Notes: generated by a model from the letters alone, not told the origin. A stretch of 20,000 nucleotides of DNA from an uncultured virus (IMG/VR IMGVR_UViG_3300042691_048960) (IMGVR_UViG_3300042691_048960), one strand, 5' to 3'. Numbered from the stretch's first letter, positions 109 through 15,758 are shown. A program made the numbers and translations.

Positions 109-483
109 ATGATCTCAAAACCACCCCATTCTTTGGACATTATGATCGGTCAACAGCTTCGGCTTCGTCGTAAAATGATGGGTATGAGCCAAGCTGAGGT
201 TGCCAAGCGATGCGGCATCACATTCCAACAAATTCAAAAATATGAAAACGGTGCAAGCAGCCTTAGTGCACGCCGTCTATACGAATTGTCGCAGGTGCTA
301 AAGGTGTCTCCGCTCTATTTTTATGCGCCACTTCAAGAAGAAACGTTGCCAGCTGTAGACGCGCTCACGACACAGGCAATTCATCTGGTGCAGGACTACA
401 GTTCCATCCCCTCTGCGAAGGTGCGTAACGGCATCGCCGCCTTCGTGCGTGAAGTCGCTAAGGAGTCAGGCCGTGGGATATAA
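109..483 (+). CDS. XRE/Cro-C1 family HTH transcriptional regulator
   Basis: 124 aa. The motif IGQQLRLRRKMMGMSQAEVAKRCGITFQQIQKYENG is typical of alphaproteobacterial HTH_3 regulators. Confidence 0.9.
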   Translation: MISKPPHSLDIMIGQQLRLRRKMMGMSQAEVAKRCGITFQQIQKYENGASSLSARRLYELSQVLKVSPLYFYAPLQEETLPAVDALTTQAIHLVQDYSSIPSAKVRNGIAAFVREVAKESGRGI

Positions 484-700: not shown

Positions 701-2122
701 TTGGTTAGTATTGCAGCAAGTGATTCAACGTCATGGCTACATTGCCACGGGCGGGTATGGCTGGATAAAAATCCGCCAGCTGGAGCCGCGACTGTTACGC
801 CAAGCGAATTTGATCAGCTCATCATCACAATGGGGTTACGACACGAATGGGATATCAAGCGCGAACTGGCGCGACAGTATCAGCTTGTCGAAGCCGTTTC
901 CGAAGAGCACACTCGCGCGCTTATGGAAGCCGGGGCGCAGATCATCTACCAAGGGCAGCTATCCGAAGGCGACATTATCGGCAAACCCGATTTTCTTATC
1001 CGCCATGAATCCGGCCAGTATCAGGCTGCCGATGCGAAGCTGGCGCGAAGCGAGGAAAAAAAGGAAATCCAAATCCAGCTTGGCATTTACCGTAAGCTGC
1101 TGGGCAACGGCCTCAACGCGATAGTGTTCCTCGGCAATGGAAGTGTAACCGAAATTGGCGATGAAGCCGACATTGACGTTGAAAAATTCACACTCAGTAT
1201 GCGGGAATTGCTTGCACAAAAAACCATGCCGCAGGTTCGCTACAGCGAAAGCAAATGCCGAGCCTGCAACTATTACGACCACTGCAAAGCCTCGTTCATA
1301 GCCAAAGGCGAATTGACGTTGCTTTATGGCATTGATTCACGCGCTGCGCCTGAATTGGAAAAACAGGGAATCGATACGATTAGGAAACTGGCCGAAGCCG
1401 ACCCCGCCAAAATTGAAGACGTGCCATACCTAAAAGGCTATGAGAAGCGTTACAGAGCCGTTTTACAAGCCAAGTCTTACTTCGATGACAGTATCCACCA
1501 GTTGAAGCCTATAACACTTCCTAATGGCACGTGGATTCATTTTGACGTTGAGGCAAACCCGCTGGCAGAATCCGGTGATGATAACGTTTACCTTTGGGGG
1601 CTTTTGAAGCCACCCTATAACGGTCAAGCATTCGATTACATCTGGGCGGATTCGGAAAAACAAGACCGTGAAGGCTGGGAAGCGTTCTTGACGAAAATCG
1701 CTGAATACCGCGCACAATATCCTGACCTGGTTCTGGCACATTTCTCTGGTTACGAGGTGCAGAAAATCAGAGCCTATGCGGAACGCTACAGTATGCAGGC
1801 GCATCCGATCGTCGAATGGTTGCTTGGCGATAACACGCCGCTCTTTGACCTGCTGGAGACGGTTAGGGATTGCCTCGTATTGCCGGTGGCGAGCTACGGC
1901 CTGAAATATATCTGCAAACATCCGAAGCTGGTAAATTTCCAATGGGATGATACGGATTCAGGTTCGCAGTGGTCAGTCGTGCAATATGTGAATTACCTTG
2001 GCGAACTGCGCCCTGATGACCGCGAACGGCTTAAGCGCAATATCCTGACCTACAATTTTGATGACGTGGTGGGTACGCGCAAGCTAGAGGAATGGCTGCG
2101 CGCGTTGCCGCCTATGCAATAG
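701..2122 (+). CDS. TM0106-family RecB-like nuclease (PD-(D/E)xK domain, Cys cluster, HhH, C-terminal RNase H-like domain)
   Basis: 473 aa, TTG start after AAGGA. Nuclease motif GKPDFL...DAKLA; CRACNYYDHC plus an N-terminal Cys; HhH-like LLYGIDSRAAPELEKQGI; RNase H-like acidic motifs HFDVEA...SYGLK...YNFDDV. Confidence 0.8.
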   Translation: MVSIAASDSTSWLHCHGRVWLDKNPPAGAATVTPSEFDQLIITMGLRHEWDIKRELARQYQLVEAVSEEHTRALMEAGAQIIYQGQLSEGDIIGKPDFLIRHESGQYQAADAKLARSEEKKEIQIQLGIYRKLLGNGLNAIVFLGNGSVTEIGDEADIDVEKFTLSMRELLAQKTMPQVRYSESKCRACNYYDHCKASFIAKGELTLLYGIDSRAAPELEKQGIDTIRKLAEADPAKIEDVPYLKGYEKRYRAVLQAKSYFDDSIHQLKPITLPNGTWIHFDVEANPLAESGDDNVYLWGLLKPPYNGQAFDYIWADSEKQDREGWEAFLTKIAEYRAQYPDLVLAHFSGYEVQKIRAYAERYSMQAHPIVEWLLGDNTPLFDLLETVRDCLVLPVASYGLKYICKHPKLVNFQWDDTDSGSQWSVVQYVNYLGELRPDDRERLKRNILTYNFDDVVGTRKLEEWLRALPPMQ

Positions 2123-3971
2123 GCTCCGGCGCGGGAATGAAACCAGCCCTGCCGAGGGCAGTATCTTTCGTGAATGGGATATAGTTCATCTTGCTCGTCA
2201 CCGCTGCCGGCGGATCGTCGTTCTCTAAAACGATGACTTGCATACCTTGCGGCAAATCGCAGAGTTTCGCGTAAAATTTTTCCTTCATATCGTCTGTAAT
2301 GGCTTCATCCTTTGCCACGTTCTTGTCAGCGCCACGATATGTTACCAACGGAGAATCCAAAACAACGAAGCCTGGATGCGGCATTTTTTTGCTTACGCAG
2401 AATTCCATTAACGAAATTATGAATGCAGCGTGAGTAATGGCTCTATAACCTTTGCCCTGTTCGGCACGGTTTTTATCCCCAATGATAATATCCTGATTCA
2501 CTTCGCTAAAGGCAACGCGCCCTAAGTTCGGATATGACCAGTCAGTAAGTGTTTTCTCGATTATTTTCATTAGCTCGCCGGCTTCTGCCGCTTGTAAGCC
2601 GGTTAAGACAGGCGCAGTTTTAGGCGGGTTTTTCAGGTCTTTCTCTGCGGTGACTTTCAGATCTTCCATCACCTTGATTTGCTCCATCGTGCCAATCATT
2701 ATTTCGACATTCTTTTTCGTTTCAAAAAGCTGTCGCAGATTGTTCCTTAGCACCGAGAGCTGCGGCTCTAGCTGCTTACCCACAACGCTGTCGATGCGCT
2801 TATATTCCTTTTCATTCAACTCCTTGAGCTTCGTGAAATCGTTGAGTTCGCTGCTGACTTGGGTAATCGTTTTGGCGAGGTCATTCTTTTGTGAGTTGAT
2901 TTTCTTTTTCTCGCGCTCGCATGATGCTTTGATTTCAGAAATTTCTTTCTCGCTTATAACGCATTCCGGCTGATGATGCGCAGGCTCGGAACCGCATACA
3001 GGGCAATTCACATCGTTTGAAAGGCTAAGGCCGTTACCCGTTTCTATGATAGCGTCCAGCCTATCCAAATCGGTTTGATAGTGTTGCGCCAGCAATGTAA
3101 AGCGGCTCAAAATTTCGGTTAGCTGGTCGATTTTTGACTCTGCGCCAATAGCCGTATCGTATGCAGCTTTACGTTCCTCGCGCAAATCTTCCATGTCTTT
3201 TTGGTTCTGGAATATCTTGTTGGTATCGCCTTCGATGGTCAGACTCAATTTTTCCAGTTGATCTTCCAGCTCTTCCTTTGTGGTATCTTTTTTAACATCC
3301 ATGCCACCGATGAGTTGCTGCAAAAGATTGATGCGCGCCGTAGCGTCTGCTTTACGAATTTCTGGCCGCTGCTGGACGATGATTCCGCTATAGTCGATGC
3401 CCGTTAGCATGAAGCGGAATAGTGCCTTTTCCTGCGTTTTGTCAGTATAAGGCCCAGTATAAATAGGCGACACATTTTCCTGAATCTTAATCTCATTTAC
3501 CAAGAGAAGATTGCGCAAAATATTAAACGTCAGACTGACCGTTTCATTATGGTCATTTCGCTTTAGCCTCTTCTCTGTAAGCCCAACCAAATCCAAAAGA
3601 AAATGTGAAATATTCTCTTTTTTGGCGTTTGCCGAGCCGTATAGGACCGTACTTTCAGTTTCTGCCGTGATGCTCTCAAAGTCAGCTTTGTAAACCTTCA
3701 TGTCGTGTGAAAGCACACTGCGTTCGAGAGTGAAATCAACGTCACCCGCTGTGACTGTCAGAAAAAGATTTGTGTATCCCTTTGCTTCCGGCGGGTCTTT
3801 TGGCGGATTCGTGCCACCCAATATGTAATTCAAGCACTCAAAAATCAGCGTTTTGCCCGTATCGGATGGGCCGGATATAACGTTAAAGCCCGGTCGGAAA
3901 TCAACAACCGCAGGCTTCTTTTCTGGTATATCGCTCGTGAAAACGAGCTTTTTTAATGTCAGCCTGTTCAT
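2112..3971 (-). CDS. ABC-three-component / Lamassu-type SMC-like (Rad50-like) ABC ATPase, LmuB-like
   Basis: 619 aa. Walker A GPSDTGKT near the N-terminus, long coiled coil with central CPVC zinc hook, signature-like GKGYRA, Walker B FVVLDSP. Confidence 0.85.
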   Translation of the reverse strand: MNRLTLKKLVFTSDIPEKKPAVVDFRPGFNVISGPSDTGKTLIFECLNYILGGTNPPKDPPEAKGYTNLFLTVTAGDVDFTLERSVLSHDMKVYKADFESITAETESTVLYGSANAKKENISHFLLDLVGLTEKRLKRNDHNETVSLTFNILRNLLLVNEIKIQENVSPIYTGPYTDKTQEKALFRFMLTGIDYSGIIVQQRPEIRKADATARINLLQQLIGGMDVKKDTTKEELEDQLEKLSLTIEGDTNKIFQNQKDMEDLREERKAAYDTAIGAESKIDQLTEILSRFTLLAQHYQTDLDRLDAIIETGNGLSLSNDVNCPVCGSEPAHHQPECVISEKEISEIKASCEREKKKINSQKNDLAKTITQVSSELNDFTKLKELNEKEYKRIDSVVGKQLEPQLSVLRNNLRQLFETKKNVEIMIGTMEQIKVMEDLKVTAEKDLKNPPKTAPVLTGLQAAEAGELMKIIEKTLTDWSYPNLGRVAFSEVNQDIIIGDKNRAEQGKGYRAITHAAFIISLMEFCVSKKMPHPGFVVLDSPLVTYRGADKNVAKDEAITDDMKEKFYAKLCDLPQGMQVIVLENDDPPAAVTSKMNYIPFTKDTALGRAGFIPAPEPIA

Positions 3972-4468
3972 ATTGTTCCGTGCTTTAATAATGCTTCTCT
4001 CTCGAATTCACCGCCCCATCTATCAAGATTCTCCTGAAAGAACTTATCGAGCTGTTTATCCGTGTAATCATCGAACACACTGATCACCCACGCAGCACGT
4101 TCCTTGAGCAAGCCAACATAGCGTGATTCCAGTCCATCCATGAACGGTGTGGCATTATCCGACGCCTGATAAACAATACCCGTTTTATCATACTCCCTGA
4201 TGACAAGTTTTCTACTCATCATTAAAAGCAGCCCCTGTTCCAAAATATGACGCTTCACCAGCACTTCACCAGAGCGATGCGGAGTAGCAGGATGGATACT
4301 TTCAGGACCACCAGCATCACCGGAATGCACCAGCAGATAATCGTAAAACACCAAACGTTGTAGGTCGTAATCGCGGGGGAAGGCGTGCTCCAATATAACA
4401 AGTGAGCGTAGGCCGCACTCAATGGCACTATTAAAAGGATGGACGGATTTAACTTTCTTGACTGCCAT
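3968..4468 (-). CDS. ABC-three-component middle component (MC2-like; LmuC position)
   Basis: 166 aa. PFNSAIECGLRSLVIL...LQRLVFYDYLLVHSGD...GPESIHP...RSGE matches my recollection of the ABC-3C MC2 pattern. It lies between effector and ATPase, with a 4-bp overlap to the ATPase. Confidence 0.8.
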   Translation of the reverse strand: MAVKKVKSVHPFNSAIECGLRSLVILEHAFPRDYDLQRLVFYDYLLVHSGDAGGPESIHPATPHRSGEVLVKRHILEQGLLLMMSRKLVIREYDKTGIVYQASDNATPFMDGLESRYVGLLKERAAWVISVFDDYTDKQLDKFFQENLDRWGGEFEREALLKHGTI

Positions 4469-5549
4469 TTGCCCACGATACTTTATTGTTATTGGCGAGT
4501 TGATGACAAATACCAGCTCGATCTCTTGTTTCTAATCTTTCTTTTAGCGGATGTGAATCAATCTGTATTTTGTACGCTTCTTGCACCGCATTTTTTACGC
4601 GTTCAAGGCCGTGACTATGTTCAGAAAGTATTATGTTTTCAATGCCAGTAAAAATCTCATCCTGCAATCGCTCAAACTCTCCCGCTTCCAAATAGTCTCT
4701 TGAAAATTTGTGTAACGATTCAGCGCAATAAAAATGAATGCGGGCATCTCGCAGGTGCTTCTTCAATCCCAAATTTGCATCCACATCACTCATGTTACAG
4801 GTGTCTTTCTGCAAAAATTCAGCATAAGCATCAAAGAGCTTTTGAATATAAACCGCTTCGATCTCAGCATGGTCATCTGGCGGAACTTCATTAGTAGGAC
4901 GCAAAGGCAAGCCGCCGCCGAACCGATGATGATAGTATGGCGTTTTACGGTGAATTTCGAGCATTTGCAAAACCGTTTTGTCCTTCACGATTGAAAAATC
5001 AAACGCCTCAACATATGCCTTTAATTCACCAGTCAGCGGAATTTTTTTAGTAGAGGTGATTGCGTTCTCGCAGTGCTTCTTCCATGCTTTGATGAGCTGT
5101 TTCCTGAGCTCGTCGGGCTTGCCCCCGCGCAGTAGTTTTGACAGCGCAGTGCCGATGCCCAGAGGGGCAACAAAATAATAGTTCTCCGGCACAGAGTATT
5201 CTTTGATGAACGTGTAATAGCAGAGCTTTCCTAACTCAAGCCATACATCGGTCGGGTACAGCGCGTTCTTATAATGCTTACACTGATAATTGTCCCAGCC
5301 TCCTGCAAAGCCCTTATCAGTTTTGAATGCCGCAATATCTATACCTTGATCACCCGCACCACCAGCACGGCTGACGGAGTGATATTCTTTCTTTAAGCTA
5401 TGGGTACATTCCTCCGTATATTGCTCCCACTCCTTATCGTCGTAGAGCTGGATAATTCTTTGCGGCAGGATATTTTGCCCGTTTTTTACCACGTCGCTAT
5501 AGGTCGGTGGCACAGCTGGAATGTCAATATCTTTAAGCTCAATTACCAT
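4449..5549 (-). CDS. ABC-three-component / Lamassu effector (LmuA-like): N-terminal Mrr-like restriction endonuclease fold plus C-terminal ABC-3C domain (CTD6-like)
   Basis: 366 aa. WEQY...GAGDQGIDI...NYQCKHY is a PD-(D/E)xK variant with D..QxK. The C-terminus ends in AGICHQLANNNKVSW. It overlaps the middle-component gene by 20 bp. Confidence 0.8.
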   Translation of the reverse strand: MVIELKDIDIPAVPPTYSDVVKNGQNILPQRIIQLYDDKEWEQYTEECTHSLKKEYHSVSRAGGAGDQGIDIAAFKTDKGFAGGWDNYQCKHYKNALYPTDVWLELGKLCYYTFIKEYSVPENYYFVAPLGIGTALSKLLRGGKPDELRKQLIKAWKKHCENAITSTKKIPLTGELKAYVEAFDFSIVKDKTVLQMLEIHRKTPYYHHRFGGGLPLRPTNEVPPDDHAEIEAVYIQKLFDAYAEFLQKDTCNMSDVDANLGLKKHLRDARIHFYCAESLHKFSRDYLEAGEFERLQDEIFTGIENIILSEHSHGLERVKNAVQEAYKIQIDSHPLKERLETRDRAGICHQLANNNKVSWANGSQES

Positions 5550-5552
5550 GCT

Positions 5553-8264
5553 CTATTTCCCAAACCTCGAAAGAATCCCAGCTAACGTCGCACTTGGCTT
5601 GATCTCGGTGTGAGGGATAAGCACATAGCGCCACGGCTTTCCGCCATGCTGTAGCTCATGTTCCGTTGCAGCCTCACACCAGCGGATAGCAGCTGCGGCT
5701 TTTTCCTTCACTTCTTCGGATTCCACATCTCGTTCGGCTTTAGGCTCACAGATCAGCTTTTCCGTTTTTGTTTCCACCACAAAGTCAGGCTCGTAGGTGT
5801 TTTCACTCGTGTAGAAGATTTTGAAATCTTCGCGCGCGGGCTTAAACCATTTGAGCACTGCGTCCTCATCTTCCAGCATCACAGCGAATTGCCGCTCAGT
5901 GTCGGAGTGGAATTTCTGGATAGGGTATAGGCATTTGCGATAGCCCTGGAAAAGCATCCCACGGATCATCGAGCGTTCATCGACATTATTGCGGAAATAG
6001 CGGGCTTTCTCACCTGCATCATAGGAAACGCTGGCAATCTTCGGACGCTCAAAACCGCGCACTACGGTCACTTCAAACTCTGTCACTCCACGGCGGAAAT
6101 GTGCCTGCATCTGAGCATGAACAACGTTTGCAAGCTCCTTGCGGAAGTATTGCAGGACGTTCAGCACATCATCAGCTTCGGTCAGGTATGAGCGCAGATA
6201 GGCAACCATCTGGCCGGCGAGGTCATATAGCACATCCGCATGGTCATCATACGAGATGTCATCAAAATCCATGAGCGCCGATACGATATAGTTTTCTGGG
6301 CGTTCCTCATCGAAAATGACGTAATCGCTTTGCAACTGCTCACGCTTCGATGTGCGCAGGTGCTGAATCAGAATCTGTTGCTCAACAGGGTTGAAGCGGC
6401 CAATCCCTGCGGTATCCAGCTTGAAGTGCTCAAACGTATAGTTTTTTGAGCCTTTCGGGGTCAGGATGATGCGCGGAATATCAATCGTGTTCTGGATAAA
6501 CGCATCGGTAACTTTTTTCACCAATTCCGCTACGTTCGGCTTTTCAATGATTCCAGTAAGCTCCGCTTGTGCAGGCGCAATGCGTTCTTCTACTTGACGG
6601 ATGATTTCCTGCTGGATTTTTTCTTCGCTCAAATTGCGGGAAGTTGGCAAGCGCTCAAAGGTTTTGATGGCTTCCATCGTGAACTTGGCGACTTCCTTTT
6701 CCGCTTCGTTTAGTACCAATGGCTGCTGAACAGGACGCGCTGGTGCAGCACCAGAGGTCGATGGTTCAAAGAAGTCATCGGGCATGGATGCGGTAGCCTG
6801 GTTGCCCAGAATGGCATCAAGGTTAGAGCGTATCTCAACGGCTTTCTTCGGAGTCAGACTAATATCGCGGCCGATGACGATGCCAGTGCGGATAATCGAG
6901 TGCTTCTCGTTGGATTCCTTAATGATTTCATCGAAGCGGTCATGCGCCACGATGGTCAGGCGATCTACCGCTGATACACCTGTGCGCTTGCCATAAGGCA
7001 GACGCAAACCGCGCCCGATAGATTGCTCCACCAGCGTGCGTGAGTTGGCGGCGCGCAGCGGCACAATCGTGTAAAGGTTGGTTACGTCCCAACCTTCTTT
7101 CAGCATATTCACGTGTACGACGATTTCCGTTGGTTCGTTCGGATCTTCCACCGCAAGCAAGCGCTGCACGGTTTCGTCCTTTTCCTCGCCTGATTGCGCT
7201 GAATGCACCGTAATTACACGGTCACGGTATCTGCCTTGGAAGAAGTCATCGCTCTTAATCATCTCGACGATTTTGCCGGCATGGGTAGTGTCCTGTGCCA
7301 CAACCAGCATAAACGGCTTCACATAAGGCTTATCGTTATTGTCGGCATAGACTTTCAGCTCAGTTTTCACCGTTTCATGAATGCGGATGCCATCTTCCAG
7401 CTTGAGCTGTTCCAGCTGATCTTCTGTATAATTCGCAGCGTTGAAGTTTTCCCGCGTTGCAACGGCTGGCTCTTTCACATAGCCATCTTCCATAGCACGA
7501 TATAGCGGGTAGCTATAAATCACGTTCTTAAACGGTATCGCTTTCTTGCCTTGCTCCACCTGCGGCGTAGCGGTGAGTTCCAGCCCCAGCACAGGTTTGA
7601 GTTCATTCAGAGCACGGATGCCCGCGCTGGCGCGATAGCGGTGCGATTCATCCATAAGCAGCACCAAATCTTCCAACTTGGAAAGATAGTCAAAATAGCT
7701 CTCACCGATATATTCTGACAGCTTGCGGATGCGGGGCGTGTTGCCACCACGGACTTCGCTGTTAATTTTCGAGATGTTGAAAATGTTGATATGAATCGTT
7801 TCTGCCTGTCCCAAAAGGTCGGTGCCGCGCACACCGCGTCCTGTTTCATAGTTGTCGCCAGTGATGATTTCAGGCGGGTTCAGCACAAACTCTGAAATGC
7901 CCTGAAACACATATTTGCGCGTGTTCGGTGTGAAGTCCTCGATCAGCTTATTGTAAATGGTCAGGTTCGGCGCCAGCACGAAGAAATGCTTGATGCCCTT
8001 GGCGAGGTGCAGGTAGCTGATAAATGCACCCATAAGGCGGGTTTTACCCACACCAGTGGCAAGCGCAAAGCACATAGATGGAAACTCACGTTCAAATTCC
8101 TCGACGGTTGGAAACTCAGACTTGATGATTTCCAAATCCTGCTCAAGAGTGCGCTCCTTATTCAGCGGGATGATTTCCGAGATGCGCGACAGGATTTCCA
8201 GCGATTCACGCTGCGGCGTGCGTAAGCTGAGGCGGTTGCTGATTGTGTTAATGTGTTTGTTCAT
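5553..8264 (-). CDS. res: Type III restriction-modification restriction subunit (SF2 helicase plus C-terminal endonuclease)
   Basis: 903 aa. ATGVGKT (motif I), DESH (II), LTATP (III), MLKEGWD, EQSIGRGLR (VI) and C-terminal YEPDFVV...ICEPK nuclease motif. Starts 3 bp after mod ends. Confidence 0.9.
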   Translation of the reverse strand: MNKHINTISNRLSLRTPQRESLEILSRISEIIPLNKERTLEQDLEIIKSEFPTVEEFEREFPSMCFALATGVGKTRLMGAFISYLHLAKGIKHFFVLAPNLTIYNKLIEDFTPNTRKYVFQGISEFVLNPPEIITGDNYETGRGVRGTDLLGQAETIHINIFNISKINSEVRGGNTPRIRKLSEYIGESYFDYLSKLEDLVLLMDESHRYRASAGIRALNELKPVLGLELTATPQVEQGKKAIPFKNVIYSYPLYRAMEDGYVKEPAVATRENFNAANYTEDQLEQLKLEDGIRIHETVKTELKVYADNNDKPYVKPFMLVVAQDTTHAGKIVEMIKSDDFFQGRYRDRVITVHSAQSGEEKDETVQRLLAVEDPNEPTEIVVHVNMLKEGWDVTNLYTIVPLRAANSRTLVEQSIGRGLRLPYGKRTGVSAVDRLTIVAHDRFDEIIKESNEKHSIIRTGIVIGRDISLTPKKAVEIRSNLDAILGNQATASMPDDFFEPSTSGAAPARPVQQPLVLNEAEKEVAKFTMEAIKTFERLPTSRNLSEEKIQQEIIRQVEERIAPAQAELTGIIEKPNVAELVKKVTDAFIQNTIDIPRIILTPKGSKNYTFEHFKLDTAGIGRFNPVEQQILIQHLRTSKREQLQSDYVIFDEERPENYIVSALMDFDDISYDDHADVLYDLAGQMVAYLRSYLTEADDVLNVLQYFRKELANVVHAQMQAHFRRGVTEFEVTVVRGFERPKIASVSYDAGEKARYFRNNVDERSMIRGMLFQGYRKCLYPIQKFHSDTERQFAVMLEDEDAVLKWFKPAREDFKIFYTSENTYEPDFVVETKTEKLICEPKAERDVESEEVKEKAAAAIRWCEAATEHELQHGGKPWRYVLIPHTEIKPSATLAGILSRFGK

Positions 8265-8267
8265 AAA

Positions 8268-9929
8268 TTACTCCCCAGCCTCTTCAAACAGCGGCATCGT
8301 TGTGGCTGGTTTTGATTTTTTGGTGGTTTTCTCTTCTGGTTCTTCCTTCGCCATTGGCAGATTCTGCACATTCAGCGAGTAGTCGTCTTTTCCCCATTCG
8401 CACTTATTCAGCACTGTGCGCGGTATTTTTTTGAGGGTCAGGTTCGGGAACTCATCAGCCTTCACACGGAATGCACCGCAACATATTAACAGACTGCGGT
8501 TATCACCGACTTCCTGTGAAATCGTCGCAAGCTGCGCCTGATCCATCGTCTGCGTGGTGACATAAATGAAATCGGTTTCGGTCGATGCGCCATGAATCCA
8601 GTAATGCTCATCACTCGGCGCATACTTAAAGCCCATGATTTTGCACAGAGCTTCGGAAAGCATCGCAGGGTTAAATTCTTTGCTGATAATCCAGTTACCC
8701 CAGCGGTCTTTCTCCAACATGGAAGGGGCAAGGTTATAATAGCGGAAACCGCCGCCGCCTTTCCATTCCACCGCCTTGCTGATGCCGCCTTGATCTTCGC
8801 CGTCAATCACCTTTTTCAGGCGTGGAGCGATATGGGTATGGCAGTGCTCACCCAGTTCCACCATTATCCACTTGCGTCCCATCTTATGCGCTACTGCACC
8901 AGTGGTGCCTGAGCCGCCGAAGGAATCGAGCACTAGGTCGCCTGGAGTAGTCGCTAGATGGAGTATTCTCTGAATTAACCTTTCTGGCTTAGGAGTAGCA
9001 AAGACATCTGATAATTCAGGGAAAATTAATTTTACTTCCTTTTTGGCTTCATCATTATGGCCAACGTCCTTATATTCCCACCATGTAGTGCTTGGCACAG
9101 AATCTGAAACTTCGTTTAGAAACCTTTTTAAGCGCGGGACATTGTTTCCGCTTTCTCCGAACCAAATTCTGTTCTCGGCGACGAGTTCTTCATATTTCTC
9201 TTTCGTAAATCTCCAGCTGGTGCCTTTAGGAGGCATGTGTGAACGCCCTGAAGGGCCGATTATCGGATAAATTGCATAATCTCTTGCTTCGTTTCTAAGC
9301 AGGTCGCCTGAAGTCCATGGTCCGCGTGGATCATTATCTTGATTCTTATACCTAGCATCTTGAGCGTCTGTTCGAGGAAGACGGTTTAGAACAAATTTTT
9401 CCTTATTTTTTGCATAGATTATGACGTAATCATGCGACTCAGAAAGATACTTTGAATCACTTTTAGCACCGTATTTTTTCTGCCAAAGTGCGGTGGCAAC
9501 AAAATTCATCCTGCCAAACACCTCATCACAAAGCACTTTCAAATAGTGGGCTTCGTTATCATCAATCGTAATCCATATTGAGCCTTCATTCGCCATTAGA
9601 CGTTTAAGAATTTCCAAGCGGTCACGCATCAAACTAAGCCAAATGGAATGCTCAATACCATCGTCATAATGCTCAAATGCCGAGCCGGTGTTGTAAGGCG
9701 GGTCGATGAAAACGCATTTCACTTCACCCGCGTAATCAGCCTCCAATGCGCGCAGGGCAAGTAAGTTATCGCCATGAATCAGTACATTATCAAAAACATC
9801 ATTCTCACTATGACGCTGCTTTGCATGATAGGACAGCTTGGTATCTTCAAGCAGAATGCGCGGCTCCAGCTTCGGCGTTTTTTCTTTGCCAATCCATGTT
9901 AATTCGAGCTTTTGTTTTTTCGCTGCCAT
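8268..9929 (-). CDS. mod: Type III restriction-modification methyltransferase subunit (beta-class N6A/N4C MTase)
   Basis: 553 aa. N-terminal KLELTWIGKE and NVLIHGDNL; catalytic FIDPPYNTG precedes the central TRD; TPKPERLI; SAM-binding DSFGGSGTT; GGGFRYY. Confidence 0.92.
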   Translation of the reverse strand: MAAKKQKLELTWIGKEKTPKLEPRILLEDTKLSYHAKQRHSENDVFDNVLIHGDNLLALRALEADYAGEVKCVFIDPPYNTGSAFEHYDDGIEHSIWLSLMRDRLEILKRLMANEGSIWITIDDNEAHYLKVLCDEVFGRMNFVATALWQKKYGAKSDSKYLSESHDYVIIYAKNKEKFVLNRLPRTDAQDARYKNQDNDPRGPWTSGDLLRNEARDYAIYPIIGPSGRSHMPPKGTSWRFTKEKYEELVAENRIWFGESGNNVPRLKRFLNEVSDSVPSTTWWEYKDVGHNDEAKKEVKLIFPELSDVFATPKPERLIQRILHLATTPGDLVLDSFGGSGTTGAVAHKMGRKWIMVELGEHCHTHIAPRLKKVIDGEDQGGISKAVEWKGGGGFRYYNLAPSMLEKDRWGNWIISKEFNPAMLSEALCKIMGFKYAPSDEHYWIHGASTETDFIYVTTQTMDQAQLATISQEVGDNRSLLICCGAFRVKADEFPNLTLKKIPRTVLNKCEWGKDDYSLNVQNLPMAKEEPEEKTTKKSKPATTMPLFEEAGE

Positions 9930-9937
9930 AATTCCCT

Positions 9938-12904
9938 CTAGTGTATGCTCCAGCTGACCTGGAAAATTTCTGTTACTTCATGCCGCGTGCTTTGCAGCTG
10001 TTTCTCGATCTGCTTAATCAGTGTGTCGCGTTTTTTGTCGATTTCATCCTGGGCGGTGTAAAGCTCATGACGCTTGGCGGTGCGGCGTTTTTCCTGCGCT
10101 GCTTTCTGGCGCTGGAATTCCAGCTTTTCACTTAATGCCACCATTTGCTTAGATTGACGGTCAAGCTCTCGGATGTCCTTATCGAGCTTCTTGATTTCCA
10201 GCTCCAAACCGTTTTTCAGATCTTCCGCCCAGCGGTCGAGCTTATCTAGCTCTTCATTAAAATAGCTGTGATTGTTGATTTCCGCTTCTTGAAGCATTTT
10301 GCCAGTGCGAGAGCGCACATCAGCTTCAATATGCTCGTTGAAAGGGCATGGCTTATGTTTTGTGTTAGTTTCCGCTGGAAGGAAAAAAAGTTTTTCAGCG
10401 ATTTCTGGTTTCAGCAAATTGTCATTTTCATCGCACACCGAGAAAAGCAACTGCGTGGATGTTTCAAAACTCTCGATGGTCAGCTGATGAAGTGAAAGCC
10501 AGCCTGATTTACCGATATAATCTTCCAGCATAGCAATGCGGTGCGGGTTGCCGGTGAGCTTGAAAGCAATGTGAGCGTGCGGCGTTTCCAGATCTTTAGC
10601 TGACTTGCACACCATCTCGCCCTCGATGCTGGATAGGCGGTGCGGGTATCCCGTCACAGGATGTTTCAGATCATCACTGCGGCGTTTGCGGCGCACGGCA
10701 ATAGCCAGTGGGTCGGTTTTCTCGGTAGGGCTTGTATCGACGTAATAATACATCGGCACTTTTTCATTGTCGTTTGCAGCGCGTTTTCCTGCGCTGATAA
10801 ACGCCTCATCGGTGCCAAAAATCATTTGGTCATCGTTAAAATAATAGCGGCTGTGATGATTGCTGTATTTTGACAGATAAACGAATTTCGTCAGTTCCCA
10901 GAACATGCGCGTCACTTCATCCACACGGCGGTCAGTGTTTTCTTTCTGGATTTTTAGGCGCTGATGCACATCTTCATCAAAATGCTCGAACAACATTTGC
11001 TTGGTTTGTGCGATACGCTCCTGAATCGGCTCGTCCAGCTCAACACGAAGTTTAGAGAATGCTTCCTCAATTTCCTCAGGCTTGCGGCAGGTTTCAAAGA
11101 TGTCCAAAATCCGCTTTTCAAAATCGATGCCTGATTCAATGCGACCAAGCACCTCATCGGACGCGCCGAAAACGCCATCAAACAACTGGAATTTTTCTTT
11201 CAGCAACTCATAGATGCGCTGATCTGCCCAGTTGGTTTGGTTCAGGAAGTTAATCACCACCACGTCATGCTTTTGACCGTAACGATGCACGCGGCCGATA
11301 CGCTGTTCCACGCGCTGCGGATTCCAAGGCAGGTCGTAATTCACCAGCAACGAGCAAAACTGTAGGTTTAAGCCTTCCGCTGCGGCTTCGGTGGCAATCA
11401 TAATTTCGCCTTCATCGCGGAAATAATCCACCAGCGCCATGCGCATATCTACGTTCTTTGCCCCAGTGATGCGGCCAGTCTTTTCATTTTTATCCAGCCA
11501 GTCACGATAGATGCCACGCGCCAGATCATCATCATTCGTGCCGTTGAACGTGACAATCTTGCCTTTGTAACCTTTCTCCGTGAGAAATTCTTTCAGGTAA
11601 CGCTGTGTACGGCTGGACTCGGTGAAAATCAGAGCCTTCTTTTCGGCGCCTAATTCCTTCATTCTCTTGAAGCCAATATCCAACGCTTTCAGTAATTCCT
11701 TGGCTTTGGATTCAACCTTTATTGAACGCGCCAGCGCAATGAAACCATCGATTTGCTGGATTTCAAATTGGAGCTTTTTCTGGTCAATCGGTTTGCCCTT
11801 GGCAGTTGGCTTGATAGGCTCAACCTCAGGCTCTTCCTCCAGATATTCGCTATCGAGGTCGTTTGCGGCAACGAATGCCGCGCGGATATTAAGCGGCTTT
11901 TCTTTGCCTGTTTCCGCCATATCTTCAAGGCGCTGCTTAATCGTTTTCAGCGTTCCAATCAGTGCATAGCTCGATGATGCCATGAGCTTGCGGATGATGA
12001 GCACGACGAGTTTGCGCTGTGCCCACGGTATCGCATAAGTGTCCTGTTCCAGCAGGAATGCAGATACCGCATCGTAAAGTTGCTGTTCTTCTTTGGAAGG
12101 AGTGAAGGGCTGCGTGACCGCTTCGCGCTTGGTGTAGCGGATATATTCCAGCACCTGACGTCGCAGGGTGCGTTTGATAAATGGCTGGATGCGGCGTTTC
12201 AGTTCCTCAGTGTTCGGCGTGCCGGCGACGTATGCCGCTTTGAAAGATTCCACACTACCAAACAAGCGGTCATCAATTAGGCTGGCAAGTCCGTAAAGCT
12301 CCATCAGTGAGTTTTGCAGCGGCGTTGCGGTCAACAGTACCTTGCGATAATCTTTGAGCGCTGCCTGAATATTTTTACCCATTTTATTATCAGGCTTATA
12401 GACATTCCGCAGTTTGTGAGCCTCATCGATGATTGCCAAATCCCAGCGCACACGAGCAATCTCATCCTGGAAGCGGCTGGCGAATTGATATGACACGATG
12501 ATGATTCCGTCGAACTCAAGCGGTGAAGCATCGCCTTTCTTGAGTTGGCGGAACGCATCACTTTCGATAATCGTGCTTTTTAGATTGAATTTTTCTTCCA
12601 GCTCTATCGACCATTGGCGGCGCAACGCTGCGGGGCAGATCACCAGCAAGCGGCGTTTATGCTCCGCCCAGAATTGGCAAAGCACAATACCAGCTTCAAT
12701 CGTTTTACCCAAGCCCACTTCATCCGCGAGCACAACGCCCTTTGACAAAGGTGAGCGGATGGCAAATAGAGCGGCTTCAACTTGGTGAGGATTCAGGTCA
12801 ACACAGGCATCGAACAAAGACGTGGACAGGCGATCGGCGTGCGTGGACGGGCCGATTTTCGTTAAATCATACGCATAGTATTTTGCATGGTACGCTGTTG
12901 TCAT
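9938..12904 (-). CDS. SNF2-family helicase/ATPase associated with Type III R-M
   Basis: 988 aa. LNPHQ, LADEVGLGKTIEAG, IIDEAHKLRN, LLTATPLQN, TEAAAEGLNLQ, YDLPWNPQRVEQRIGRVHRYGQ and a C-terminal coiled coil. Confidence 0.92.
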   Translation of the reverse strand: MTTAYHAKYYAYDLTKIGPSTHADRLSTSLFDACVDLNPHQVEAALFAIRSPLSKGVVLADEVGLGKTIEAGIVLCQFWAEHKRRLLVICPAALRRQWSIELEEKFNLKSTIIESDAFRQLKKGDASPLEFDGIIIVSYQFASRFQDEIARVRWDLAIIDEAHKLRNVYKPDNKMGKNIQAALKDYRKVLLTATPLQNSLMELYGLASLIDDRLFGSVESFKAAYVAGTPNTEELKRRIQPFIKRTLRRQVLEYIRYTKREAVTQPFTPSKEEQQLYDAVSAFLLEQDTYAIPWAQRKLVVLIIRKLMASSSYALIGTLKTIKQRLEDMAETGKEKPLNIRAAFVAANDLDSEYLEEEPEVEPIKPTAKGKPIDQKKLQFEIQQIDGFIALARSIKVESKAKELLKALDIGFKRMKELGAEKKALIFTESSRTQRYLKEFLTEKGYKGKIVTFNGTNDDDLARGIYRDWLDKNEKTGRITGAKNVDMRMALVDYFRDEGEIMIATEAAAEGLNLQFCSLLVNYDLPWNPQRVEQRIGRVHRYGQKHDVVVINFLNQTNWADQRIYELLKEKFQLFDGVFGASDEVLGRIESGIDFEKRILDIFETCRKPEEIEEAFSKLRVELDEPIQERIAQTKQMLFEHFDEDVHQRLKIQKENTDRRVDEVTRMFWELTKFVYLSKYSNHHSRYYFNDDQMIFGTDEAFISAGKRAANDNEKVPMYYYVDTSPTEKTDPLAIAVRRKRRSDDLKHPVTGYPHRLSSIEGEMVCKSAKDLETPHAHIAFKLTGNPHRIAMLEDYIGKSGWLSLHQLTIESFETSTQLLFSVCDENDNLLKPEIAEKLFFLPAETNTKHKPCPFNEHIEADVRSRTGKMLQEAEINNHSYFNEELDKLDRWAEDLKNGLELEIKKLDKDIRELDRQSKQMVALSEKLEFQRQKAAQEKRRTAKRHELYTAQDEIDKKRDTLIKQIEKQLQSTRHEVTEIFQVSWSIH

Positions 12905-13083
12905 TTCTTATCGTTTCTTTGTTTTTCAAGCCAATCCTCAATCTCCTTGCGTTTGAATCTCCACGAACCCCCAACTTTGAAGGCTGGAATTTTCCCTTCA
13001 GCAGCAAGGCGATAAATCGTCTTTTCTGCAATATGCAGAAAATCCGCGACCTCCTTGATTGTTATTAGCTCCGGCTTTGCCAC
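12901..13083 (-). CDS. Excisionase-like HTH_17 DNA-binding protein, resembling the MAD1-type regulator that heads methylation-associated defence operons
   Basis: 60 aa, LITIKEVADFLHIAEKTIYRLAAEGKIPAFKVGGSWRFKRKEIEDWL. GTG start; its stop overlaps the SNF2 start (ATGA). Confidence 0.85.
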   Translation of the reverse strand: MAKPELITIKEVADFLHIAEKTIYRLAAEGKIPAFKVGGSWRFKRKEIEDWLEKQRNDKK

Positions 13084-13164
13084 GCAAAAATCTCTTGTGT
13101 TTGCATTGATGCCAATGAAAATAGAGAAAAGTGAGAATTATTCCAGCTAAATCGCTGGCCTACC

Positions 13165-13196
13165 AAAAAATATAGCCGCGACATGGCGCGGCTATA
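13165..13196 (-). terminator. Rho-independent terminator downstream of the 99-aa gene, upstream of the defence operon
   Basis: Perfect 10-bp stem TATAGCCGCG (13171-13180) / CGCGGCTATA (13187-13196), 6-nt loop, followed on the minus strand by T6 (13165-13170). Confidence 0.8.
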
Positions 13197-13227
13197 AAAC
13201 ATCGCTTGCTGCGATTGTGGTCAACAC

Positions 13228-13527
13228 TCAATCCTCATCGCTTTTACCGCCATACATCACGCTCATGTACCGACAGTTTCCGAACTGACTGCCCATCTTG
13301 TTCACATGATCCATGAACATCGCAATGATCTCTGGCACGCTTATCGATTCCAACGATTGACCTGTTCGCCGCTTGTACTTTTCGAGTTTTTTCTTGAACC
13401 CATCGAAGACAGCGTGAATATGAGCATGTGGAAGTGCCGAAGTCATTTCTAACCACGATAGAAAATTCTGATCTGCCATACTTAAACGCTGTTCCTCGGT
13501 AGGTTTTAGTTCATGCACATTTGCCAT
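13228..13527 (-). CDS. Hypothetical protein (99 aa)
   Basis: ATG preceded by a strong SD GGGAGGT (13532-13538, minus strand) and followed by a terminator. No family recognised. Confidence 0.7.
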   Translation of the reverse strand: MANVHELKPTEEQRLSMADQNFLSWLEMTSALPHAHIHAVFDGFKKKLEKYKRRTGQSLESISVPEIIAMFMDHVNKMGSQFGNCRYMSVMYGGKSDED

Positions 13528-13655
13528 ACCGACCTCCCTAAATAACTGTTGTGCAAAGGTTTATAAGCCCCTTATTGTACAAAAAGGGAGGTGCATTCTA
13601 GCAACCTCTGATAGAATTGGCAATCTTTAATTCTAGCTATACGGGCATTATTTGC

Positions 13656-13916
13656 CTAGTTGCGGGATTTTTTCTGTCCGGCTTTATCGGAATCCTGCCC
13701 AAACAAAAGCCACTCAGGGGTAACTTCCAGTACCTTGCAGATTGCTGCCAGCTCGAAGTCTCGAAGCCCGCGCACACCGCGTTCGATTTCAGAGATACTG
13801 GTTTGCGAGATTTCGATACCATGATCGACGGAGAGGGCAGCAGCGAGTTCCACCTGATCGAGTTCCCGATCAATGCGTGATAGTTTTATTCTTTTTCCAC
13901 AAATGTTTGCCTTCAT
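13656..13916 (-). CDS. XRE-family HTH transcriptional regulator
   Basis: 86 aa, NICGKRIKLSRIDRELDQVELAAAL...ISQTSISEIERGVRGLRDFELAAICKVLEVTPEWLL. Confidence 0.85.
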   Translation of the reverse strand: MKANICGKRIKLSRIDRELDQVELAAALSVDHGIEISQTSISEIERGVRGLRDFELAAICKVLEVTPEWLLFGQDSDKAGQKKSRN

Positions 13917-14067
13917 AAGTTCCGCAGCCTACCCTTAGGTGCGGAACGCTAATGCTCATCGGAATTTCGCGTAGCGGGATTCCCAATAAATCAGTATTAT
14001 TTCCATTACCGCATTGTAATTTTATGTTTAATAAGGCTACCCCAATTGGTAGAAGGTACGTTTTATA

Positions 14068-14499
14068 ATGAGAAAAGCAGCGTCTAATAAAACAACAATA
14101 CAGCTGGATGACGTGGATATTCAGGTGGGTTGCCGTATCCGCGAGCGACGCAATGCGCTTGGCATGACACAGGAAGAGCTGGGCAAGGCACTGCGTGACA
14201 GCCTTTCTCACCAACAGATCCAAAAATACGAAAAGGGCGAGAACAGCATCAGCTGCGCGCGCCTGGTGCAAATCGCGGAAGCACTGGGTGTCACCGCTGG
14301 CAGTTTGCTGGAGGGTGTATCGGCCAAGTCAGGCAGTGGCGGGCTACATGAGCCGCCAGCTGCACCGTTTGAACACGAAACCACCTACGACAAGAAGGCT
14401 CTCAACCTAGCGATAGAGTCATTACCCAATGCCGACATGCGTAAGGCGGTCGTCGATTTCCTGAAGATCGTGTCGAATAACACCAAAAAATCAGCCTAA
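14068..14499 (+). CDS. XRE-family HTH transcriptional regulator, same subfamily as 109..483
   Basis: 143 aa, DIQVGCRIRERRNALGMTQEELG...SHQQIQKYEKGENSISCARLVQIAEALGV. SD-like GAAGG upstream. Divergent from 13656..13916. Confidence 0.88.
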   Translation: MRKAASNKTTIQLDDVDIQVGCRIRERRNALGMTQEELGKALRDSLSHQQIQKYEKGENSISCARLVQIAEALGVTAGSLLEGVSAKSGSGGLHEPPAAPFEHETTYDKKALNLAIESLPNADMRKAVVDFLKIVSNNTKKSA

Positions 14500-14515
14500 A
14501 AATCAGGCAAGGTTA

Positions 14516-14887
14516 TTACTTCTTTGTGCCTGTAATGAAGGTGGGCAAGAAATCTGGTTCATCCCAATCAGCAATATATTGCTCGGACAACGCATCGAGA
14601 GACTTTAGAAATTCTGGATCATCGATTCTTACCAAAGCAGTGAACAGTTTATTCACCACCTCTCTCATGAGACGTTTCATCTCATCATTGCTAATGCGCG
14701 ATAAATCATTCCACGCAATTTCTCCTGAGGGTGTAATTACTTTTACATCAGAAAAATCACCCGTCTGAGTGCGCGGCGTTTTACCTGCATGCAAGTCTTC
14801 AAGAAACGTATTTCTGACGCATGTCACAGCCAAGGCTTTTGCTAAAGCAGACTGGATAGAGTGATGATCGTTTTCTGCCTTGCTCAT
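14516..14887 (-). CDS. Hypothetical protein (about 123 aa)
   Basis: The ORF-track start at 14941 lies inside the tRNA, so the ATG at 14887 (MSKAEND...) is preferred. The core CVRNTFLEDLHAG...SDVKVITPSGEIAWNDLSRISNDEMK looks like a conserved proteobacterial hypothetical family. No clear SD. Confidence 0.65.
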   Translation of the reverse strand: MSKAENDHHSIQSALAKALAVTCVRNTFLEDLHAGKTPRTQTGDFSDVKVITPSGEIAWNDLSRISNDEMKRLMREVVNKLFTALVRIDDPEFLKSLDALSEQYIADWDEPDFLPTFITGTKK

Positions 14888-14909
14888 ACATGCCGCGAGA
14901 ATAGTGAGG

Positions 14910-14996
14910 TGGTGCCCCCGGTCAGACTCGAACTGACACATCCGTGAAGATAATGGATTTTGAATCCATCGCGTCTACCAATTCCACCACGGGGGC
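14910..14996 (-). tRNA. tRNA-Leu(CAA), complete, CCA encoded
   Basis: Minus strand GCCCCCGTGGTGGAATTGGTAGACGCGATGGATTCAAAATCCATTATCTTCACGGATGTGTCAGTTCGAGTCTGACCGGGGGCACCA, 87 nt. Acceptor GCCCCCG/CGGGGGC, anticodon arm ATGGA-TTCAAAA-TCCAT, long variable arm, T arm GTCAG-TTCGAGT-CTGAC. Confidence 0.95.
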
Positions 14997-15010
14997 GTTA
15001 TTTTTTGCTC

Positions 15011-15030
15011 GTGCCGACTATGTGCCGACT
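15011..15030. repeat. Tandem direct repeat GTGCCGACT x2 (11-bp period), candidate integrase arm-binding sites
   Basis: GTGCCGACT at 15011-15019 and 15022-15030, about 100 bp inside the putative att junction. The repeat is seen directly; the function is inferred. Confidence 0.5.
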
Positions 15031-15052
15031 GAACAGTTTTTACTCGTTTTTT

Positions 15053-15089
15053 CTAAAATCGGAAGGTCTTTATAACCATCTGATTTTAG
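15053..15089. repeat. Imperfect inverted repeat between the tRNA fragment and the intact tRNA
   Basis: CTAAAATC (15053-15060) / GATTTTAG (15082-15089), with further inner pairing GA/TC and GGT/ACC. Confidence 0.55.
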
Positions 15090-15135
15090 TCTTAAAATTC
15101 TACCCCAGAATACAATCATCTGCGAAGGACTCATG

Positions 15136-15177
15136 GGATTTTGAGTCCGGCGCGTCTACCAGTTCCACCACCGGGGC
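15136..15177 (-). pseudogene. Truncated 5' half of a second tRNA-Leu(CAA), probably the interrupted host gene (att junction)
   Basis: Minus strand GCCCCGGTGGTGGAACTGGTAGACGCGCCGGACTCAAAATCC, followed by unrelated sequence. 37/42 identical to the 5' half of the intact copy. No variable arm, T arm or acceptor 3' strand follows. Confidence 0.85.
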
Positions 15178-15191
15178 ATATGATTTGTGGC

Positions 15192-15219
15192 ACTATAAGC
15201 ATCTGGTCTGGTTGGTCAA
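15192..15219 (-). promoter_or_regulatory. Sigma70 stable-RNA-type promoter upstream of the truncated tRNA
   Basis: Minus strand TTGACC (15219-15214), 16-bp spacer, TATAGT (15197-15192), then GC-rich GCCAC. The -10 box ends 14 bp before the fragment's 5' end. Confidence 0.7.
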
Positions 15220-15257
15220 CCCTTGCCTTTCATCCACGAAAAATTTATGCTGTATGC

Positions 15258-15758
15258 ATGAAGATCTCCTCGCTGCTACCCAAGACAAGGCGTTCGCTGC
15301 TGCTCGCAACGGCGCAGTTTTCGGTGCTCGTGCTTGGTGCGGCGCTGGTGGGGCAGTATGGCTTTGACCTGTACCCTTGCGAGCTTTGCCTTTATCAGCG
15401 TTATCCTTATGTGGTGATTATTCTGGTGGGGCTGTATGGCAGTCTTTTTGCGCGTTCGCCAAAGCTGATATTCATGCTGCTTTTGCTGGTTTCTGCGATG
15501 TTTTTAACCACATCGGGGATTGCTTTTTACCACACGGGGGTGGAATATGGCTGGTTTCAGGGACCTTCTGCCTGTTCCGGTGGCGATAGCAGCAATCTGA
15601 CGCTGGAAGAAATGCGCGCGCAGATCATGAACGCGCCGCTGGTCTCCTGCGCGCAGGCGATGGCCTATATTTTCGGGCTGTCCATGGCGGCGTGGAATGC
15701 GATGCTATCTTTCGCCGCTGCGTGCGGCACATTGTGGCTGATGAGGAAAACGGTATGA
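15258..15758 (+). CDS. dsbB: Disulfide bond formation protein B family membrane protein
   Basis: ATG at 15258 (166 aa). PCELCLYQRYPY redox motif, AFYHTGVEYGW, a second Cys pair (PSAC...VSC), IFGLSMAAWN and four hydrophobic helices. Confidence 0.9.
   Translation: MKISSLLPKTRRSLLLATAQFSVLVLGAALVGQYGFDLYPCELCLYQRYPYVVIILVGLYGSLFARSPKLIFMLLLLVSAMFLTTSGIAFYHTGVEYGWFQGPSACSGGDSSNLTLEEMRAQIMNAPLVSCAQAMAYIFGLSMAAWNAMLSFAAACGTLWLMRKTV

Follow-up and report, generated by a model that had tools for sequence, protein, structure and literature searches.

Organization of the tRNA-Leu(CAA) locus

The DNA considered here, a stretch of 20,000 nucleotides (nt) from an uncultured virus (IMG/VR IMGVR_UViG_3300042691_048960) that is referred to below as the window, carries a split and a complete gene for tRNA-Leu(CAA) close together on the minus strand. 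From position 15177 leftward, the sequence is very probably the left junction (attL) of a site-specific island that breaks the tRNA gene of its host and replaces it with a tRNA-Leu(CAA) gene of its own. The right host flank of the insertion is marked by dsbB (15258-15758, plus strand; PF02600, 1.1e-30), after which COQ7 and a secretin gene follow in the window. A promoter-like site, TTGACC-16-TATAGT (15192-15219, minus strand; 10/12 matches in a promoter scan), precedes the position of the original host tRNA-Leu(CAA) gene. Only the 5' half of that gene is present at the junction, as 42 nt at 15136-15177 on the minus strand (gene positions 1-42); the half ends ...CTCAAAATCC and covers the anticodon loop together with the first three bases of the 3' strand of the anticodon stem (...GGACTCAAAATCC). 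Neither ARAGORN nor Rfam calls a tRNA at 15177-15136.

Direct reading of the sequence shows that the 5' half is followed by 139 bp of non-tRNA DNA (14997-15135, minus strand), which would be the element arm that reaches from the core to the element tRNA (the P' arm of attP). Within this arm lies GTCGGCACATAGTCGGCAC (15011-15029, minus strand), which consists of two direct GTCGGCAC repeats 11 bp apart and is, by its recurrence and geometry, a putative arm-type integrase site. The arm leads into a complete tRNA-Leu(CAA) gene of 87 nt (14910-14996, minus strand), the single tRNA that ARAGORN finds in the window. The Rfam score of this gene (RF00005, 54.4 bits) is close to the 54.9 bits of an intact host tRNA in a relative (locus L002, see below), and its stems are paired, with GCCCCCG/CGGGGGC in the acceptor and ATGGA/TCCAT in the anticodon arm. 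The layout of a promoter-borne 5' half beside dsbB and a full tRNA 139 bp further on had been described in an earlier note on the window, and it is confirmed by ARAGORN, Rfam, the promoter scan and alignments; so are the five differences between the 5' half and the first 42 nt of the full copy, which fall on gene positions 6, 16, 28, 29 and 33.

The native gene and the incoming copy

Relatives of the window's organism were recruited via DsbB as metagenome-assembled genomes (MAGs), the titles of which read Rickettsiales or Alphaproteobacteria bacterium. Four of their loci (L001-L004) show synteny with the window from 15136/15197 to ~19750. The loci L002, L004 and L005 hold one intact tRNA-Leu(CAA) gene each, upstream of dsbB, and the GTCGGCAC motif is absent from all three dsbB loci; the island-free relatives that the earlier note had proposed for comparison therefore show a single whole gene, not a fragment plus a full copy. 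The 5' half of the window is identical to the intact tRNA of L005 at 42 of 42 positions and to that of L002 at 41 of 42. Moreover, the L002 tRNA stands at the same distance from dsbB and is preceded by the same promoter sequence, save for a single changed base in the stretch from the -10 box to the gene, and the homology of the window with L002 (78% over 4.6 kb) breaks off exactly at 15136. Because the fragment agrees with the intact genes of L005 and L002 in sequence, promoter and distance to dsbB, and because homology ends where the fragment ends, the fragment is best read as the remains of the native host gene and the full copy as foreign. The host 3' half of the window's organism is predicted to contain ...TCAAAATCCGG... 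and to end CCGGGGCACCA, as in L005. In two of the relatives (L001, 3160-3330; L003, 1050-1225, minus strand), ~145 bp that have no counterpart in the window or L002 separate the host promoter region from the 5' half; inverted repeats (...GCGAACTATTGCGAGAACCGCAGCGCAGCG...) abound in this insert, which may represent a miniature mobile element.

The arrangement of the window recurs in L001 and L003, where GTCGGCACATAGTCGGCAC is conserved a short way upstream of the full tRNA. With up to two mismatches allowed, a 22-nt pattern that includes the motif was searched for in 401 genomes of the order; it matched 22 of them, and a reversed control matched none. In 21 of the 22 genomes the motif lies ~12-14 nt ahead of a tRNA-Leu(CAA) gene, and in 20 of these 21 a 5' half cut at CTCAAAA stands 105-111 nt (mostly 109) upstream of the motif, with unrelated host flanks; the one remaining contig starts at the motif. 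Across the 24 sites in the 21 genomes, the tRNA after the motif is full at 20, cut in the anticodon loop at three and cut by the contig end at one. The same spacer family ('CCATGAGTCC...') is found behind different hosts (G030, G250, G293, G286, G256, G377 and G168). In particular, the full tRNA of the window is identical at 87 of 87 positions in G052, G286 and G030, the host halves of which differ from that of the window and from one another; beyond the host half, the DNA of G052 matches the window over 60 nt only, at 78%. These comparisons show the replacement tRNA as a sequence that travels with the island. Outside the MAGs, viral contigs contain no exact match to the arm motif, and a blastn search of a phage database with 14400-15260 returned only tRNA-Leu genes of unrelated phages.

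The two copies could also be explained the other way round, with the full tRNA (14996-14910) as the native gene and the 181 bp upstream of it (5' half plus spacer) as a small insertion or a partial tandem duplication. The copies are indeed co-oriented and close together, as in local duplications. However, it is the fragment and not the full copy that has the sequence, promoter and dsbB distance of the intact genes; the full copy is identical in hosts with diverged flanks, variable cargo follows downstream of it, and matching 3' halves lie kilobases away in relatives. A duplication is therefore very improbable, and the earlier view that the copies are distinct alleles, not a duplicated target, holds. 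Even less credit can be given to a metagenome assembly chimera joining two tRNA-Leu genes. Such genes are repeats shared between organisms, and the depth over 15067-15217 is inflated by many unrelated contigs; loose contig ends at 15136 and 15170-15178 belong to tRNA-Leu genes of other organisms. Against this stand the recurrence of the layout in 20 independent genome assemblies and an independent public run, a contig of which (X3, record 12) covers 14762-15178 and spans the fragment, the spacer and the full tRNA; the order of these three parts is therefore no assembly accident.

Far ends of the islands and the displaced 3' halves

At all eight far ends examined in relatives, the motif is followed, after 129-132 nt, by GACTCAAAAT, a host-specific 3' half and then CACCA. 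The 3' half that the earlier note had found missing, and expected at the far end, is thus present at 8/8 such sites. The motif has the same orientation at both ends of the islands; its distance to the core is 105-111 nt at attL and 129-132 nt at attR. An integrase gene, likewise expected by the earlier note, precedes the motif at seven of the eight far ends, the exception being a remnant in G013; at the six far ends that lie on separate contigs, it stops ~40 nt short of the motif. The seven separate far-end loci are without a tRNA call by ARAGORN, and in the two complete elements ARAGORN calls the internal copy only; a whole host gene, which according to the earlier note would make the internal copy redundant cargo, is thus not rebuilt at the far end.

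Both ends are found on one contig in G052 (L055). This locus runs from dsbB through the 5' half (2699-2739), the motif (2847) and the tRNA (2879-2965) into HTH (helix-turn-helix) genes, helicase cargo, a lysozyme gene and a tyrosine integrase gene (13053-14324; PF00589, 1e-19); the far end consists of the motif (14397), then ...GACTCAAAATC and the 3' half, which ends at 14602. The second complete case is a 1.75-kb mini-element in G013 (L059, 1817-3564), which lacks an integrase and retains the replacement tRNA together with the two junctions and the two arm motifs; it codes only for a 354-amino-acid (aa) open reading frame (ORF) with no Pfam match and probably represents an island in decay, through which the foreign tRNA became fixed. 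The 3' half in G052, as in G013, is a fit for the 5' half of the host (GCCCCGG/CCGGGGC) and not for the tRNA of the island. Both halves were found in seven genomes, where the acceptor strands pair at 7 of 7 positions and the anticodon stems at 4-5 of 5 (mean 11.6 of 12). Moreover, the sequence 3' of the intact tRNA in L002 is homologous to the sequence 3' of the displaced 3' halves in G293 and G286. Because the halves pair and this downstream sequence is shared, the 5' halves and the displaced 3' halves are parts of one former gene. No 3' half was found in G001 and G003, the contigs of which stop soon after the island tRNA.

A conventional island that restores its tRNA from a 3' part carried in attP, with the 5' fragment as unrelated debris, would be the usual expectation, since P4-type integrases usually work in this way, according to the Islander account (PMC4383910). 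Here, however, there is no hybrid gene: the host 5' half runs into non-tRNA DNA, attP and target are identical over only ~9-12 bp, and the far end is a 3' half alone, preceded by island DNA. We regard a restoring island as most unlikely.

Further features were observed around the 3' halves. Where the 5' strand of a host's anticodon stem reads CTAGA, the 3' strand reads TCTTG, so that the second stem pair is a T-T mismatch (G052 and G293; far ends L055 and L049, near ends L035 and L042); this looks like a natural feature of the host allele and not like decay. The host sequence just 3' of the tRNA (CTTCGGAA...GGTTCGAGTCCGC...CAGTCAAAGACTTGGCT) is conserved between genomes and includes a T-arm-like piece (L002, 9740-9835; L049; L051, ~1241-1321). 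In L049 two copies of this sequence (~1179-1319 and 8-98) are separated by ~1.2 kb, as though a further small insertion lay between them. Directly beyond the 3' half of G052, a large serine recombinase gene (L055, 14565-16127, minus strand; Resolvase, Recombinase and Zn_ribbon_recom domains) is located, the longest ORF of which overlaps the 3' half; a second, unrelated element may use this neighbourhood.

Integrase, crossover and proposed mechanism

Integrases with PF00589, PF13356 and PF14659 adjoin the right junction in L055, L047, L049, L051, L029 and L053. That of L047 matches PF13356 at 9.5e-15, PF14659 at 1.8e-10 and PF00589 at 9.4e-19, with similar matches for L053, and the integrase PHROG 1 is matched at 2e-61. 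The integrases of the relatives thus have the architecture of the P4 type: an Arm-DNA-bind_3 domain (PF13356), a SAM-like domain and the catalytic domain (PF00589). Islands and targets share only GACTCAAAAT(CC), ~9-12 bp. At all informative junctions, the bases left of TCAAAAT follow the target, or left partner, and those right of it follow the incoming element, or right partner. Because the flanking bases sort in this way, the crossover is placed in the anticodon loop, within TCAAAAT (15138-15144, minus strand), which comprises the anticodon CAA and its neighbours and would be the segment of strand exchange, as judged from attL/attR pairs and nested junctions. A class of tRNA integration sites sublocated in the anticodon loop was reportedly defined by Williams in 2002. 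The two GTCGGCAC repeats, which lie one helical turn apart, would serve as the arm-type sites contacted by the integrase.

On this basis, the following course of events is proposed. A P4-type tyrosine integrase would recombine the ~9-12 bp attP core, GACTCAAAAT(CC), with the anticodon loop in the host's gene for tRNA-Leu(CAA). The excised attP would have the order integrase gene, motif, ~131 nt, core, ~100 nt, motif, ~12 nt, tRNA. Because attP carries no 3' part of the tRNA, integration would split the host gene: the promoter and the 5' half would remain beside dsbB, and the 3' half would end up behind the integrase gene, at the island's far end. The complete island tRNA-Leu(CAA), 139 bp inside attL, would then take over. 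Precise excision would rejoin the two host halves. The claim of the earlier note that the element breaks the gene and supplies a whole replacement is, in the relatives, borne out.

As to expression, no terminator-like site was found on the minus strand between the 5' half and the full tRNA. A promoter search for the island tRNA, in the spacer and the other arm, gave only weak 9/12 matches, no commoner than in shuffled sequences. A candidate in L055, TCGGCA-17-TAAAAT, was rejected; it ends 3 nt before the tRNA, which makes a full transcript impossible. In both the window and L055, nothing but the host promoter gives a strong promoter-like signal upstream of the island tRNA. Because the other matches are weak or misplaced, it is plausible that the island tRNA is expressed by read-through from the host promoter.

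Replacement tRNAs as targets of later islands

In G377, the window-type allele is itself cut, directly after ...ATGGATTCAAAATCC, and is followed by a second spacer, a motif and a full tRNA. In G168, the tRNA of one island has been cut by another, the spacer of which is of the window type, and again a second spacer, a motif and a full tRNA follow; G335 provides a third case of an island tRNA cut in the anticodon loop. At two of these three loci (G377 and G168), the later island supplies a further full copy. The suggestion of the earlier note that the altered anticodon arm protects the replacement from integration fails on these cases. Since the anticodon is part of the crossover, a tRNA-Leu(CAA) that works can hardly escape being targeted, and a crossover in the anticodon loop would leave each replacement open to being split by later islands. 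Possible fossils of earlier recombination with a window-type tRNA are seen in the form of extra cores: at the junctions L033, L039 and L045 the spacer family opens with a second partial core copy (CTCAAAATC GATTCAAAATCGAAG...), and the far end of L053 has two tandem cores (GGATTCAAAATAACTCAAAATC).

In G052, G013, G030, G293, G286, G001 and G003, all incomplete MAGs, the only full-length tRNA-Leu(CAA)-like match is the island copy; the other strong matches in the first five are the halves. The island copy thus appears to be the cell's only intact tRNA-Leu(CAA) gene. A broader picture, offered tentatively and with more doubt than conviction, is that the island family competes for a single tRNA-Leu(CAA) slot. 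Each newcomer would split the current gene, whether that of the host or that of a predecessor, and become the sole source; stacked 5' halves would record successive takeovers, and the tRNA would be turned over horizontally, while an island tRNA may lack a promoter of its own and rely on the captured host one. If this is true, imprecise loss of an island would be costly, and its defence or resistance cargo would be stabilized.

The window copy and its missing far end

The island extends past the left edge of the window, and the edge is still inside cargo. No integrase was found in the window with Pfam and related searches, and a scan of the window for the displaced 3' half matches only the full tRNA, with 3 mismatches. 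When the metagenome was scanned with the first 40 bases of the window, one contig was found (L060), which is 100% identical over 2734 bp and adds 3229 bp leftward; the extension holds only an 831-aa ORF and an HTH gene. The 831-aa ORF (L060, 262-2757, minus strand) has no Pfam or PADLOC match; homologues are present in 14 of the 401 genomes of the order (E <= 1e-20). The L060 cargo is shared by G341:C19, with 77% nucleotide identity over 3.2 kb and 86% protein identity for the 831-aa ORF.

The reading of the window as a disrupt-and-replace island is accordingly supported by its relatives; its own integrase, second arm and 3' half were not recovered, and several points weigh against it. The 3229-bp extension of L060 contains no integrase, motif or 3' half, and no integrase, motif or tRNA piece occurs in the 18 kb examined of G341:C19, 12 kb of which are on the expected side; the window copy may be large, rearranged or truncated. 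In the public-run contigs X2, X3, X4 and X6, where assembled contigs only were searched, there is no excised circle or restored attB. An inverted repeat that spans the junction of the window, GGACTCA (15148-15142) and TGAGTCC (15133-15127), would suggest a crossover slightly to the right of the one proposed above, the placement of which leaves the repeat unexplained. Moreover, in 153 cross-genome combinations of halves, pairing averaged 10.25 of 12, not very different from the 11.6 of halves from the same genome, because these tRNAs are all similar. Given the incompleteness of the MAGs, a sole copy means that no other copy was found in the genomes of the relatives. Finally, tRNA-Leu(UAA) could read UUG by wobble, so that a cell might not depend on the island tRNA. 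The same four sets of contigs (X2, X3, X4 and X6) also contained no contig in which a host's 5' half is joined to a 3' half of that host, and they offered no usable RNA.

A refinement of the disrupt-and-replace reading, which it does not oppose, holds that the origin was the same and that the window copy is now an immobilized remnant, with the integrase and far junction lost and the island tRNA turned into the fixed gene of the lineage. The lack of an integrase, a second motif and a 3' half in the window and 3.2 kb beyond it is in keeping with this, as are the existence of the integrase-less 1.75-kb version in G013 and the course of G030:C4, which leads from the left junction through metal-efflux cargo into genes resembling those of gene transfer agents, with no far junction in the 38 kb annotated. 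On the other hand, near-identical left ends and 100% identical tRNAs in several hosts suggest that the family moved recently, the integrase genes at the far ends of G030, G293, G286 and G383 are intact, and the left edge of the window still lies within cargo. Immobilization is possible, but we consider it the less probable state, and the window copy of the disrupt-and-replace island may still be mobile today.

Relation to known systems

The principle of disrupting and replacing a tRNA gene is already known from actinobacteriophages, and the island described here is a clear new example of it, not a new principle. In tRNA-dependent lysogeny, which was demonstrated experimentally for Fionnbharth and other K4 phages, Cluster L phages and Gaia (Guerrero-Bustamante & Hatfull 2024, mBio, PMC10865867), a tyrosine integrase uses a core of ~10 bp (~8-17 bp) in a tRNA gene, the tRNA gene is not restored, and its loss is made good by a phage tRNA of the same isotype. 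According to that account, Gaia attaches at tRNA-Leu-CAA through an 8-bp core (PMC10865867), and tRNA-Leu(CAA) is likewise the target of the islands. The likeness to these phages, as they are described there, extends to the arm-domain tyrosine integrase, the arm sites flanking attP, the short core in a tRNA gene and the lack of a rebuilt functional tRNA. Of the features that define tRNA-dependent lysogeny, the islands have the integrase acting on a tRNA attB (in relatives), the short core without a rebuilt tRNA and the element-borne tRNA, and they lack that of being a temperate phage. Unlike the phages of the same account (PMC10865867), they reside in MAGs of Alphaproteobacteria, carry defence, helicase or metal-efflux cargo and are known from sequence alone; in addition, their replacement tRNA lies directly against the attP arm, at a distance of 139 bp from the core. 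Stacked and serially split tRNAs, as found in the islands, are not met in the account of the phages, as far as it describes them.

An alphaproteobacterial precedent is provided by prophages of Sinorhizobium meliloti in tRNA-Leu(UAG) (PMC11476347, PMC12429752). As reported, insertion into the central part of a tRNA-Leu gene inactivates it in that host as well, and the replacement is a tRNA of the same isoacceptor, which in S. meliloti resembles genes of unrelated species. The S. meliloti case differs in its anticodon, UAG, and in concerning intact prophages in two strains; in those reports, as far as they go, neither a family-wide att architecture nor nesting is described. The Lj965 prophage of Lactobacillus johnsonii, as cited in PMC10865867, also encodes the cognate tRNA and leaves the gene not rebuilt at the junction; unlike the islands, it is a prophage of a Firmicute. 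Conventional tRNA- and tmRNA-targeting islands with P4-type integrases, in the Islander account (PMC4383910), share with those described here the integrase architecture, the tRNA-gene target, the position of the integrase beside one junction and the occurrence of tandem arrays at one tRNA. Such islands regenerate the gene from the tRNA part in attP and leave one displaced fragment, whereas the islands described here orphan both halves and make up for them with a separate whole gene; with non-tRNA DNA after the 5' half and island DNA before the 3' half, neither junction regenerates the gene.

What sets the present case apart is the island-like nature of the elements, the tight linkage of the tRNA to the attP arm, the family-wide geometry and the stacked replacements. 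Disrupt-and-replace use of tRNA genes is thus not confined to actinobacteriophages or intact prophages: an island family of this design is present in uncultured freshwater-type Alphaproteobacteria and moves type III restriction-modification genes with a DrmD-like helicase, Lamassu and metal-efflux genes. Programs that look for a regenerated tRNA and one displaced 3' fragment will mis-map such islands, and islands can be the source of tRNA genes in these lineages, which are then xenologues. The fixed geometry offers a ready search pattern and a testable model of attP. The pattern for the near end is a 5' half, ~109 nt, the GTCGGCAC repeats, ~12 nt and a tRNA, and that for the far end is the repeats, ~131 nt, the core and a 3' half.

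Cargo of the islands

Next to the replacement tRNA, the window contains a conserved module on both strands (13228-14887; Pfam HTH_3 and PHROGs repressor-like matches). It comprises an ORF of unassigned function (14516-14887; counted from an ATG further upstream, which lies within the tRNA, it would reach 14941), two HTH regulators (14068-14499, plus strand; 13656-13916, minus strand) and a 99-aa ORF (13228-13527, minus strand). Over 15179-13230, the identity of the window is 88% to G030 (L058), 84% to L003 and 70% to G052 (partial); the islands of G030 and the window are alike at 88% over their first 2 kb, and their cargo diverges thereafter.

Two defence systems abut as cargo on the minus strand at 2112-12904. 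The first, a type III restriction-modification system with a DrmD-like helicase, is composed of the SNF2 helicase itself (9938-12904; PADLOC DrmD, 5.5e-212; Pfam), a type III methyltransferase (8268-9929; PADLOC MTase_III, 6.6e-224; Pfam) and a type III restriction subunit (5553-8264; PADLOC REase_III, 6e-232; Pfam). The second is a complete Lamassu-type set, with LmuA (4449-5549; PADLOC, 1.9e-115), LmuC (3968-4468; PADLOC, 4e-55) and LmuB (2112-3971; PADLOC, 2.4e-164), in which the Pfam domains ABC-3C CTD6, MC2 and AAA_23 were detected. Further left, Pfam and PADLOC identify a Cas4-like/RNase_H_2 protein (701-2122, plus strand) and an HTH protein (109-483, plus strand).

Neither the window's 15 kb of island nor L060 nor the complete 11.8-kb element of G052 yielded any structural phage gene, and capsid and terminase genes were not found in the elements examined. 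Phage-like genes are limited to the integrase, HTH regulators and lysozyme, together with RecT and a nuclease near the integrase of G030. Because the cargo consists of defence, helicase and metal-efflux genes and capsid and terminase genes were not found, the elements look like islands and not phages; an element of this kind works like a phage system but is better called an island.

The island of G030 illustrates how the cargo can differ behind a similar left end. After its window-like first 2 kb (L058; L061, which is G030:C4), it carries RND, CusB-like, P-type ATPase and CDF metal-efflux genes and an OLD-like nuclease. At its integrase end (L063, which is G030:C10), genes for RecT, a PD-(D/E)XK nuclease and an SMC-like ATPase lie upstream of the integrase.

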